From positions 1-42,427 of the IMG/VR virus record IMGVR_UViG_2563366875_000004: a stretch of 42,427 bases of DNA. One strand, 5' to 3'. A program made the translations under genes and the position numbers. The stretch's first letter is position 1; each line of letters begins with the position of its first letter. A model generated the notes under the pieces. The model did no database searches, had not been told where the DNA came from, and was given only the letters and a program-made list of their open reading frames with translations. This document shows positions 10,603-12,953 of the stretch, piece after piece. Origin of the DNA: a virus. Taxonomy: Duplodnaviria; Heunggongvirae; Uroviricota; Caudoviricetes.

Positions 10603-10998
10603 ATGACTGAATTAACAAAAGAGCAATTAATCGAAGAAGCTAAATTAAAAATAGCGATTGCGAAATGCCACCCTAATTCAGAGATGGCACGGGTAGAGGG
10701 TGAGTTATTCAAAATTGCACTGGCATCGCTGGAAGCGGAGCCTGTTGGTGAATTTTATGAGTATAAGCCGGGCGGCTGGTATCAGCATTCGGCTGGAGAT
10801 AAAGCGCCAAAGTGGATACAACTCTACGCTGTGCCGCCAGCGCTCGCAGCACCTGAAGGACTGGTTAAAGCAGTGCGCTTTTATGAGCAGGTTAAGCGTG
10901 AGAATCCGCCAGCTGAAACCGGAGCATGGAAAGACGCTGTTGATTGGGTGCTCAAAGAGGCTTGCCAGGCTGTAAACATTGGCATCAAAGGAGAGTGA
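10603..10998 (+). CDS. Ea22-like hypothetical protein (131 aa)
   Basis: Shares motif ALASLEAEPV with the N-terminus of the ORF at 11220 and the IKGE C-terminal junction with the ORF at 9838. Confidence 0.55.
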   Translation: MTELTKEQLIEEAKLKIAIAKCHPNSEMARVEGELFKIALASLEAEPVGEFYEYKPGGWYQHSAGDKAPKWIQLYAVPPALAAPEGLVKAVRFYEQVKRENPPAETGAWKDAVDWVLKEACQAVNIGIKGE

Positions 10999-10999
10999 T

Positions 11000-11218
11000 A
11001 TGCCTACATTATTCAGAAAAGAATATCCGCGAAAAAGTAGAGCGACAGAATTTTTGTTTCTCATTCTGTTTATCGTGTTGCTGATACCGATATCCCCGCT
11101 AATTTTTGTCTGGGCAATCGGGAAAATAATTGAGCCAGTTATTGAATTGTATACCGACGTTGTATGGGCGCCGTTCAACACACTGCACAACAAAATCAAC
11201 CCATATAAGGAAAGCTGA
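11000..11218 (+). CDS. Small single-pass membrane protein (72 aa)
   Basis: ATG after AAAGGAGAGTGA; hydrophobic stretch FLFLILFIVLLIPISPLIFVWAIG. Confidence 0.45.
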   Translation: MPTLFRKEYPRKSRATEFLFLILFIVLLIPISPLIFVWAIGKIIEPVIELYTDVVWAPFNTLHNKINPYKES

Positions 11219-11219
11219 T

Positions 11220-11753
11220 ATGACCACTATTACCAGAGAAAACGCGGAGATTAAATCATTCATCACTGGTTTCCTGAGCGACCCGGCGCACGATAACCAA
11301 TCTTCAGACAGCCTGCTTGCCAATGTGTTTCGTATCGCACTGGCATCGCTGGAAGCAGAGCCAGTGGCGTGGAAGGCAACCTTCACGCAAATTGACAATG
11401 AATATAATACGTTCACTGCTCTGTATTCTGACAAAGCAGAAGTCGAACGGTGGGGGCGACTGCATGAAATAGGTGACTTTCGGGCAGAAATAACACCGCT
11501 TTACGCAGCGCCGTCAGCGCCGGTAATTCCGGATGGTTGGATAAGCTGTAGTGAGCGAATGCCGGAAAAGAACCAGAACGTACTTATTTCGGTGAATTTC
11601 GATAGCTCTCTGGTTGAACCGCTAATATGCTCCGCACGCTATACCGGAAGCACATTCCGGCGAGGAGATGCAACGATTAAACCGGGTAATGGTATTGAGC
11701 AGGCAACTCACTGGATGCCGCTACCGGAACCACCGCAGGAGGTGAATCAATGA
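11220..11753 (+). CDS. Ea22-like N-terminus plus DUF551-like C-terminal domain protein (177 aa)
   Basis: ATG after AAGGAA; C-terminal W...MPLPEPP pattern. Confidence 0.55.
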   Translation: MTTITRENAEIKSFITGFLSDPAHDNQSSDSLLANVFRIALASLEAEPVAWKATFTQIDNEYNTFTALYSDKAEVERWGRLHEIGDFRAEITPLYAAPSAPVIPDGWISCSERMPEKNQNVLISVNFDSSLVEPLICSARYTGSTFRRGDATIKPGNGIEQATHWMPLPEPPQEVNQ

Positions 11754-11833
11754 CCAGGCCTGAAGCATTCACAACGGTAGGAATTGCAATGGCGGTGGCG
11801 CTGGTGGTGCATTCGATTTGCCGCTGGGGGTGA
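11750..11833 (+). CDS. Putative 27-aa hydrophobic peptide (MTRPEAFTTVGIAMAVALVVHSICRWG)
   Basis: ATGA overlap with stop of the preceding gene; GGAGG RBS 8 nt upstream; followed by a hairpin and U-rich tract. Confidence 0.25.
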   Translation: MTRPEAFTTVGIAMAVALVVHSICRWG

Positions 11834-11875
11834 TAAGTGGAATAGTACGGGGTATCGTGCGCCCCGCAGATTTGA

Positions 11876-12049
11876 TTATTTATTTGGGGAGATAATGTCC
11901 TGAAGCGTGACGATTACTTCTTCATCTGTATCTATATTTCGGAGTTGATATGTAATGTCGTCGTTTCTAATAATTTGCACTACAAGCCATTCTCCATTTT
12001 TTTCACGTAAGTGAACAGTACTGTTTTCCGATATACCATGAACGGTCAT
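11876..12049 (-). CDS. Hypothetical small protein (57 aa) in an AT-rich island
   Basis: Hand-translated (below track threshold); weak RBS; convergent with the early-right operon. Confidence 0.25.
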   Translation of the reverse strand: MTVHGISENSTVHLREKNGEWLVVQIIRNDDITYQLRNIDTDEEVIVTLQDIISPNK

Positions 12050-12199
12050 TTTTATACCTTTTGTGTTGTGTGAAGGAGCAGTATAGTCAGAAATGAGACA
12101 AGTGAAAGGGGATAGAAAGTAATAGTTTGTTTTTGTAGAATTGCTGCGGGTGCTTGAGGCTATCTGCCTCAGGCATGAACACCAAAAGGCAGATAGAGA

Positions 12200-12303
12200 A
12201 AAGCCCCAGTTAACATTACGCGTCCTGCAAGACGCTTAACATTAATCTGAGGCCATATCTATGCGACACATAGAGATTAGCCTCTTACGGACCGAAAGGT
12301 CAA
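12200..12303 (-). ncRNA. Sok-like antisense RNA with its promoter (approximate bounds)
   Basis: Minus-strand -35 TTGACC (12298-12303) and -10 TAATCT (12274-12279), 18-nt spacer, reading antisense across the mok start; 3' end not defined. Confidence 0.4.
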
Positions 12304-12320
12304 GGAGAAGCAGGCTATGA
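12261..12320 (+). CDS. mok-like upstream leader ORF (19 codons) coupled to hok
   Basis: ATG 12261; stop TGA overlaps the hok ATG (CTATGA). Confidence 0.3.
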   Translation: MRHIEISLLRTERSRRSRL

Positions 12321-12472
12321 AGCAGCAAAAGGCGATGTTAATCGCCCTGATCGTCATCTGTTTAACCGTCATAGTGACGGCACTGGTAACGAGGAAAGAC
12401 CTCTGCGAGGTACGAATCCGAACCGGTCAGACGGAGGTCGCTGTCTTCACAGCTTACGAACCTGAGGAGTAA
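12317..12472 (+). CDS. hok: Hok/Gef-family type I toxin (51 aa)
   Basis: MKQQKAMLIALIVICLTVIVTALVTRKDLCEVRIRTGQTEVAVFTAYEPEE closely matches Gef/HokC as recalled; GGAG RBS; mRNA 5' segment 12146-12159 is complementary to 3' segment 12522-12536 (fbi-like). Confidence 0.8.
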   Translation: MKQQKAMLIALIVICLTVIVTALVTRKDLCEVRIRTGQTEVAVFTAYEPEE

Positions 12473-12542
12473 GAGACCAGGCGAGGGAGAAATCCCTCGC
12501 CACCTCTGATGTGTCAGGCATCCTCAACGCACCCGCACTTAA

Positions 12543-12567
12543 CCCGCTTCGGCGGGTTTTTGTTTTT
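12543..12567 (+). terminator. Rho-independent terminator of the hok mRNA
   Basis: CCCGC-TTCG-GCGGG stem-loop followed by TTTTTGTTTTT. Confidence 0.6.
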
Positions 12568-12692
12568 ATTTTCAACGCGTTTGAAGTTCTGGATGGTGCC
12601 GGAATAGAATCAAAAATACTTAAGTAGCGCGCAGGGAGAAGAGGGATGGACCCCAAATGGGGGAGTGCTATTTATCTGGAAGGATTCTGTTG

Positions 12693-12953
12693 ATGAAAAT
12701 CGAAGAATTACGTGAAATTTTTAGTGAAGATGGCCTCTATACTGTGCGCGTTGAGAATGGCGCTATTGTCAGCCACTGCCGTATTAAATGTTTACAGTCT
12801 CAACAAAGGAAGAGTGGAACTGCGTTAATTCATTTGGTGGATGGGCTTGTGACGGATGGTTTTATTTTGCGTGCAAATGAATTTGTCACATCGTTGCCGT
12901 CTCTGAAAGAAGCTGGGATTAAGGCTGGTTTTTCTGCTTTTGAAGATGTGTGA
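12693..12953 (+). CDS. Hypothetical protein (86 aa), nin-like region
   Basis: ATG at 12693 after GGA; AT-rich codon usage suggests a foreign insert. Confidence 0.45.
   Translation: MKIEELREIFSEDGLYTVRVENGAIVSHCRIKCLQSQQRKSGTALIHLVDGLVTDGFILRANEFVTSLPSLKEAGIKAGFSAFEDV

Follow-up and report, generated by a model that had tools for sequence, protein, structure and literature searches.

Two probable small genes beside a hok/sok locus in a lambdoid prophage: a widespread family of predicted membrane microproteins and a rare moron-like insertion

Locus organisation

The stretch of DNA analysed here is IMG/VR virus record IMGVR_UViG_2563366875_000004 (Caudoviricetes) over its full 42,427 nucleotides, referred to below as the window. 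In an accessory-gene stretch of this lambdoid prophage, between a DUF551-domain gene and a hok/sok type I toxin-antitoxin locus, two short open reading frames (ORFs) of 27 and 57 amino acids (aa) converge on a GC-rich hairpin (Table 1). An original prediction made from the letters of the sequence had described the pair as unannotated mini-ORFs beside the hok locus, and had noted a resemblance of the 27-aa product to small membrane toxins or regulators. Comparison with related sequences makes it very probable that both ORFs are genuine genes, with a strong case for the shorter ORF and a moderate one for the longer. Two separate small genes together with a terminator are the best joint explanation of the region, and one that we consider fairly likely.

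Table 1 Features at the locus, with positions counted from the first nucleotide of the window
Feature	Position	Strand	Remarks
DUF551-domain gene, 177 aa	11220-11753	+	Pfam DUF551, E = 1.7e-22; relatives annotated as DUF551 protein
Shine-Dalgarno sequence GGAGG	11738-11742	+	7 nt before the ATG of the 27-aa ORF; read from the sequence
27-aa ORF, MTRPEAFTTVGIAMAVALVVHSICRWG	11750-11833	+	ATG at 11750, TGA at 11831-11833
AT-rich insertion, ~290 bp	11834-12130		37.7% GC; includes the hairpin as well as the 57-aa ORF with its upstream region
GC-rich hairpin between the convergent ORFs	11847-11867		From folding; stem kept across haplotypes
57-aa ORF, MTVHGISENSTVHLREKNGEWLVVQIIRNDDITYQLRNIDTDEEVIVTLQDIISPNK	11876-12049	-	Predicted small SH3/Tudor-like beta-barrel protein
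Putative expression signals of the 57-aa ORF	12057-12107	-	By eye: Shine-Dalgarno AAGG 12057-12060; -10 box TATACT 12080-12085; weak -35 box TTTCAC 12102-12107, 16-nt spacer
hok/sok type I toxin-antitoxin locus	12148-12472	+	Context only; hok coding sequence (CDS) 12317-12472

Both ORFs and the hairpin were recovered where they had been reported, and the structural details given for them hold. More specifically, the 27-aa ORF has a GGAGG ribosome-binding site (RBS) and a start codon that shares the sequence ATGA with the stop codon of the DUF551 gene (TGA, 11751-11753), its product is hydrophobic, the 57-aa ORF occupies the opposite strand in AT-rich DNA (35.6% GC compared with 50.5% for the whole window), and the two frames run towards a hairpin with a conserved stem. 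None of these features exceeds chance expectation by itself: 52 ORFs of at least 20 aa occur within 3 kb, so that short ORFs alone are at chance level, and folding gave the hairpin no stability beyond that of shuffled sequence (z = -0.27 for the plus and -1.58 for the minus strand). The case for genes consequently rests on comparison with relatives.

A conserved 27-codon gene in phages, plasmids and E. coli

The 27-aa ORF belongs to an abundant sequence family. A blastn search with positions 11740-12110 matched 1,609 of 5,426 complete E. coli genomes, with nearly all matches limited to query positions 1-90 or 11-90, corresponding to the 27-aa ORF itself, and a stricter megablast search with this ORF alone matched 866 of the 5,426, with up to six copies per genome. 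Using tblastn, the family was detected in 94 phage and 226 plasmid records, and a degenerate pattern scan of IMG/VR returned at least 120 viral contigs. When one genome per species was scanned with the degenerate pattern, matches were confined to Escherichia and Shigella apart from one contig assigned to 'Acinetobacter idrijaensis' (JQCU01000559.1), which probably reflects E. coli or phage contamination of the assembly because it is only 369 bp long.

A total of 127 of the 133 collected copies are exactly 27 codons long, ending with TGA or TAA at the same position, and the family consensus is MTWPEAFTTVGIAMAVALVVYSICRWG. Members include the copies of phage 933W (after L0139 and just 5' of sokW/hokW; MTWPEAFANVGTVMAVVLVVYSICRWR), VT1-Sakai (after H0068, near xis/int; MNWPEAFTAVGVAIAVAFILYSLFRWG), the virulent Vequintavirinae phage Av-05 (after Av05_00123; MTWPEAFTTVGVVMAVAFAVYSVCRWG) and ArgO145 (the exact consensus, 3' of a 114-aa hypothetical gene), those of PhiR12_1 (MSWPDAIVTLGMVFAAAFVVYSICRWG) and PhiR5_1 (MSWPDAIVTLGVVFAAAFVVFSICRWG), each following an Ea22-like gene, and a 24-aa form after gp092 in the P1-like SJ46. 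The family is also present in VT2-Sakai and in P1-like phage-plasmids. Members with 59-81% amino acid identity (933W, VT1-Sakai, Av-05, PhiR12_1 and SJ46) retain the length, the hydrophobic core and the motifs at both ends. Two copies look dead from their sequence, that of Shigella phage POCJ13 (1201-1281), in which codon 3 has changed from TGG to TAG, and that of Klebsiella plasmid pKP12226 (1201-1275), in which ATA replaces the ATG start. No W-P-E/D-A mini-ORF was found in the yfdS (DUF551)-yfdT-ypdJ-torI region of CPS-53, the one K-12 prophage checked.

Substitutions among the divergent copies follow the reading frame. For seven divergent representatives, the median pairwise ratio of non-synonymous to synonymous change (pN/pS) was 0.39 in frame and 0.92 and 1.17 in the shifted frames. 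Summed over three phylogenetically independent contrasts there were 30.5 synonymous and 30.5 non-synonymous changes where 23.9% were expected to be synonymous, giving a pN/pS of 0.31 in frame (P = 1.5e-5) and of 1.03 and 1.14 in the shifted frames. The 27-aa ORF thus combines frame-specific purifying selection with kept boundaries, as a coding gene should. A few observations weigh against this assignment. Part of the sample was collected with a pattern fixing residues 3-12 or by tblastn, both of which favour protein-like conservation, and in close copies the bias towards the third codon position is modest (10, 10 and 18 variable columns by codon position). In addition, the peptide was not found in the supplements of a ribosome-profiling survey of enterohaemorrhagic E. 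coli (EHEC), an absence that is evidence neither way; the survey pipeline considered ORFs of 30 aa or more only (PMC5597208). We take the selection signal as real despite the sampling because the out-of-frame controls were computed from the same sequences. A structured RNA in place of a gene was considered and rejected, since RNAalifold found no conserved fold in the block (-6.5 kcal/mol, with a covariation term of -0.16 kcal/mol).

The boundaries of the family are equally distinct. Aligned copies become similar at the ATG and cease to be so at the stop codon, itself either TGA or TAA depending on the copy. The annotated upstream CDS of four E. coli loci ends exactly 4 nt inside the match; it encodes a DUF551 protein in two of them (L006 and L007), a 167-aa hypothetical protein in the third (L004) and a 77-aa hypothetical protein in the fourth (L005). 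Clustering of the flanks separated 11 upstream sequence classes, in each of which the start codon forms the ATGA overlap and is preceded at 7-10 nt by a GGAG-type motif, and the motif also precedes the ORF in all nine phage and plasmid loci that were read. The upstream genes encode DUF551 proteins or belong to at least four families without a Pfam match, indicating that the ORF is not bound to a single partner. On the 3' side, more than 12 unrelated sequences were distinguished: the hok promoter region follows directly in 60 of the 133 copies and the next gene of P1-like plasmids in 18, while in many of the remaining copies the downstream sequence begins with a clear intrinsic-terminator hairpin.

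Although it is abundant in reference Stx phages, the family appears to be undescribed. None of Pfam, PHROGs, NCBIfam and PADLOC has a counterpart of it, a full-text literature search with the peptide string gave no match, and the ORF is unannotated in all nine phage and plasmid loci and in the four E. coli loci mentioned above. The description of the two ORFs as unannotated therefore stands for the 27-aa ORF in the RefSeq and phage records that were opened; it fails for a few submitter-annotated GenBank records, which list the consensus peptide as 'bacteriophage protein' or 'hypothetical protein', and for the 57-aa ORF in some genomes (see below). A fusion of the peptide to DUF551 was also considered and rejected: the sequences show none, and the 90% clusters that group it with 121-185-aa 'DUF551' proteins are a clustering artefact.

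Predicted membrane microprotein and alternative roles

Residues 6-24 of the peptide form one hydrophobic stretch (mean Kyte-Doolittle hydropathy 2.0-2.1), a pattern kept in all family members, and the combination of a single stretch of ~18-20 hydrophobic residues with polar ends is that of a single-pass small membrane protein. Near the N-terminus, W3-P4-E/D5-A6 is kept across the family, followed by G11 and A15, spaced as a G-x-x-x-A motif for helix packing, and near the C-terminus by Y/F21, S22, R25 and W26 within the motif Y/F-S-I-C-R-W-G. R25 is the sole basic residue of the consensus. Judged from these sequence features, the product is best explained as a single-pass inner-membrane microprotein, predicted to be made by translational coupling. 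As the last cistron of a rightward early accessory-gene operon, the ORF would be translated by ribosomes that finish DUF551 and restart at the overlapping ATGA, aided by GGAGG, and the 27-residue peptide would then insert into the inner membrane as a single helix. Its predicted topology is N-out and C-in, because the only basic residue of the consensus lies near the C-terminus (positive-inside rule). The conservation pattern, including G-x-x-x-A, suggests that the peptide packs against another membrane helix, which might belong to a host inner-membrane protein or to the peptide itself, and would do so during early lytic growth or prophage induction.

We put forward, as a tentative and rather doubtful extension, that these peptides (M-x-W-P-E/D-A...G-x-x-x-A...Y-S-I-C-R-W-G) constitute a widespread, undescribed family of phage early-gene membrane microproteins acting on one specific host inner-membrane target, and that recombination has carried the gene to the 3' ends of many accessory operons that are unrelated to one another, among them operons of Stx phages, of other lambdoid prophages, of P1-like plasmids and of virulent Vequintavirinae. 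If this were true, action on the host target would benefit the phage, whether through superinfection exclusion, through host shut-off or, as another example, by regulating a transporter or protease. Neither for the 27-aa nor for the 57-aa protein did the analysis indicate a specific target or phenotype.

The allele in the window departs from the family at two otherwise conserved residues through the private non-synonymous changes W3R and Y21H; W3 does not vary among the other ~130 copies, which have Y, F or I at position 21. Megablast found this allele in no complete E. coli genome, the best match (97.8%) differing by exactly two mismatches. Judging from the residues affected, the window allele may be functionally impaired, and it may represent a decaying copy in a cryptic prophage.

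The resemblance to toxins that had been pointed out merits closer attention. Hok, Ldr and TisB are similar to the 27-aa peptide in size and hydrophobicity, and the peptide might on this ground be a toxin that damages the membrane, like type I toxins or Kil, and that kills or arrests the host once the early operon is derepressed, in parallel to Hok. Adjacency to hok in 60 of 133 contexts fits such a role, as does a gene order from which the operon is expected to be silent in the lysogen, where toxicity could then be tolerated. We nevertheless regard it as unlikely. Like the type I toxins (Hok/Gef, Ldr, TisB and Ibs) the peptide is small, hydrophobic, of predicted membrane location and often encoded next to hok/sok, yet its RBS is strong, exposed and coupled rather than sequestered, no fold-back leader was detected, and such strong constitutive coupling is unlike that group. 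Neither component by which a type I system is recognised, an antisense RNA and an mRNA structure that blocks translation, was found at the ORF: Rfam (E <= 1) reported no antisense RNA across 11750-11833, where a novel one is possible. The peptide matched neither Hok/Gef (PF01848, Pfam E <= 1), to which the 57-aa peptide likewise gave no match, nor any other toxin or defence model, and the PADLOC defence models gave no match for it, for the 57-aa peptide or for the DUF551 protein. The resemblance is one of size and hydrophobicity only. The gene moreover occurs far from any hok, and both P1-like plasmid prophages and a virulent phage, Av-05, carry it; its presence in up to 6-7 copies per genome also counts against a toxin. 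A toxin role is possible, although it has no specific support.

The modular boundaries could also mean that the 84-nt block is conserved as DNA, serving as a linker or boundary for recombination between lambdoid modules, with the open frame a by-product. The block does mark mosaic junctions, with unrelated sequence on either side, and most copies are more than 95% identical in DNA, as would be the case after spread by recent recombination. We regard this as quite improbable: the divergent copies show purifying selection specific to the frame (0.31 compared with ~1), the length and the position of the stop are kept although the stop codon itself varies, and the RBS and ATGA overlap have been recreated in unrelated upstream genes. 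The two roles are compatible, and a conserved small gene can double as a recombination site. Finally, it is highly improbable that translation of the ORF matters rather than its product, with ribosomes at the stop codon modulating termination or shielding the transcript end from Rho: a terminator hairpin does start 5-13 nt after the stop in many contexts (13 nt in the window), but the amino acid sequence itself is under selection, the contexts in which the hok promoter follows directly have no hairpin and the P1-like plasmids have another gene there, and a stop near a terminator is normal at the end of any operon.

A 57-codon ORF on a moron-like insertion

The second ORF is much rarer, being present in 19 of the 5,426 complete E. 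coli genomes, and protein searches with its product found relatives in E. coli only. Phmmer matches to polyubiquitin and repeat proteins (E = 4e-8 to 7e-4) were weak and summed over repeats, and were rejected as spurious. In all carriers that were opened, the ORF is a neighbour of hok and runs on the opposite strand, and in most of them its other neighbour is the DUF551 gene with its mini-ORF; in a divergent group (L149, from E. coli C5, and L150), an additional 95-aa minus-strand gene separates the mini-ORF from the homologue, which there has 56 aa. Most related prophages lack the ORF, for example L005 and L007, and there the hok promoter region comes directly after the mini-ORF stop, from which it follows that the 57-aa unit is a ~290-bp insertion. 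Lambdoid-phage morons are independently transcribed extra genes with their own promoter and terminator, inserted between conserved genes. Insertion between genes that are adjacent in relatives, together with deviant base composition, is what is seen here, and on this sequence evidence the 57-aa ORF is part of an AT-rich, moron-like insertion.

The main evidence that the ORF is coding comes from the divergent group, which is 78% identical to the window. The BLAST match to these loci spans only 11874-12051, corresponding to the 57-aa ORF, and 35 substitutions together with a one-codon deletion have left the frame, the start (MTVHGIS) and the end (TLQDI..PNK) intact; an independent two-codon deletion occurs in a further locus (L003). 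In comparisons with this group pN/pS is 0.39-0.49 in frame (P = 0.004-0.05) and 0.64-1.31 in the shifted frames. These sequence comparisons make it likely that the 57-aa ORF is a real gene, and AlphaFold predicts a compact SH3/Tudor-like barrel for its product with medium confidence (pLDDT 72.6, from a seven-sequence alignment).

A number of observations weigh against the 57-aa gene and would fit a chance frame in an AT-rich non-coding spacer, relevant at most for promoter or terminator signals or as the remnant of an insertion. A complete ORF of at least 57 aa occurs in 10% of shuffles of the AT-rich insert, and when 35 random substitutions were simulated the frame remained open in 31% of runs, for which reason openness alone is weak evidence. 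Among close haplotypes (88-99% identity) the variable columns are spread evenly over the codon positions (9, 11 and 8), pN/pS ranges from 0.26 to 1.8, and the flanks are conserved as much as the ORF. The product has no family match, the matches outside E. coli being weak and additive, and PGAP calls the ORF, as 'hypothetical', in 6 of the 19 genomes (RefSeq examples are WP_157910004.1 and WP_187469051.1) and omits it in 13. Neither the presumed promoter nor the hairpin was flagged by a promoter scan or a consensus terminator scan, respectively. We still consider a chance frame improbable, given that homology in the divergent group is confined to the ORF, that the frame survives two separate in-frame deletions, that pN/pS is low in this frame only, and that the predicted beta-barrel is compact and moderately confident.

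As a gene, the 57-aa ORF would have a weak sigma-70 promoter of its own that drives leftward transcription, with a predicted start near 12073 on the minus strand, and it would perhaps be expressed from the prophage. The CTATACT box is invariant in close haplotypes and is kept ~30 nt 5' of the ATG in the divergent group, where the flanks are otherwise unrelated. On the other strand, within the ORF, a sigma-70-like site (11945-11974; TTGATA, 18-nt spacer, AATAAT; 10 of 12 positions) points to hok and may be a chance occurrence in AT-rich DNA.

The hairpin between the ORFs is formed by pairing of CGGGG (11848-11852) with CCCCG (11862-11866), the stem having 5-6 bp in the window, where an A in place of the first G shortens it, and 7 bp in relatives. 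In all insertion haplotypes the stem GCGGGG/CCCCGC is invariant and the loop variable, with a seventh pair that changes from T.G to C-G. A U-rich tail follows on the plus strand (11868-11885, TGATTTGATTATTTATTT), and none follows the hairpin on the minus strand. From this arrangement the hairpin is the probable terminator of the rightward plus-strand operon, which would end here, and would be at best a weak, partial stop for the leftward transcript.

Relation to hok and neighbouring features

The original prediction had described the ORFs as lying beside the hok locus. The 27-aa gene is also found near xis/int, in P1-like plasmids and in a virulent phage, where no hok is nearby, and the homologue of the 57-aa ORF in the divergent group lies beside a dead hok. 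More specifically, in E. coli C5 (L149, 1700-1900) and in L150 the adjacent hok has ATA in place of its ATG and an in-frame TAG, and Rfam did not find sok beside it, although a 45-aa 'Hok/Gef family protein' starting at an internal GTG is still annotated there by PGAP. Loss of the hok start codon and the sok region at L149 indicates that the 57-aa gene is independent of hok. The adjacency of either ORF to hok is incidental, and neither gene alters the understanding of hok/sok. In the window, sok is matched by Rfam at 12148-12319 (108 bits, E = 3.9e-25), and relatives have hok under the annotation hokD.

The genes of the closest relative run in the order DUF1627, DUF977, a methyltransferase, several small genes, DUF551 and hokD, followed by two hypothetical genes, DUF968, RusA and antiterminator Q. 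Just 5' of the DUF551 gene of the window lies a small hydrophobic plus-strand ORF (11001-11218; 72 aa from ATG, MPTLFRKEYPRKSRATEFLFLILFIVLLIPISPLIFVWAIGKII...); a relative encodes a 69-aa 'hypothetical protein' (WP_000951717.1) at the corresponding place. The DUF551 gene matches phrog_60 across its full length and has an N-terminal motif, ...ALASLEAEPV..., in common with the gene at 10603-10998, which suggests from sequence that the two are tandem paralogous Ea22/DUF551-type modules. Just 3' of hok, a sub-threshold Rfam match to IsrK, a Salmonella prophage small RNA, was obtained at 12481-12562 (+) (25.6 bits against a gathering threshold of 50, E = 0.0066); this stretch takes in a terminator at 12541-12558, and the weak match to IsrK recurs at the equivalent site of a divergent prophage (L149, 1906-1987). 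Further 3' of hok, a 98-aa ORF of uncertain start (12657-12953, +) matches phrog_340 (E = 5.5e-24), with an 86-90-aa hypothetical protein annotated at this place in relatives and a Pfam 'Rem' match in one locus (L146).

Comparison with known systems

The 57-codon gene would represent rare moron-like cargo. Its unit resembles the morons of lambdoid phages in being a ~290-bp insert of deviant GC content between genes that are adjacent in most relatives, and in its opposite orientation, -10 box and flanking hairpin, but differs in that promoter and terminator are weak and fail consensus scans and in that the gene is unusually small and rare. The model of its product superposes on known members of the SH3/Tudor-like fold, consistent with the prediction of a small beta-barrel protein, whereas sequence identity to SH3, Tudor and KOW-like domains is 2-24% and there are no assignable ligand-binding residues.

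Up to ~30% of complete E. coli genomes carry the 27-codon gene, often more than once, as do the reference Shiga-toxin phages 933W and Sakai, and it offers a clean, testable case of the small-protein blind spot in phage annotation, its product being a candidate host-directed membrane factor of medically important prophages. Scores against described small-protein models reflect little more than composition: KdpF (TIGR02115) gave 14.7 bits with a cut-off of 26.85, attributable to hydrophobic composition only, and the DUF883_C glycine zipper (PF19029) gave 14.3 bits, below its threshold of 27. The closest parallels are in architecture. KdpF, CydX, MgtS, MgtR and AcrZ have 25-50 aa and a single hydrophobic helix, and their translation is often coupled at the boundary of an operon; small proteins of this type are routinely missed by annotation and act by packing on a larger membrane protein. 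The 27-aa family shares with them its size, the predicted single helix and the coupling, and has a conserved G-x-x-x-A of its own. It differs from them in having no sequence relationship to any of them and no constant adjacent partner, and in being phage-borne and mobile among unrelated operons.

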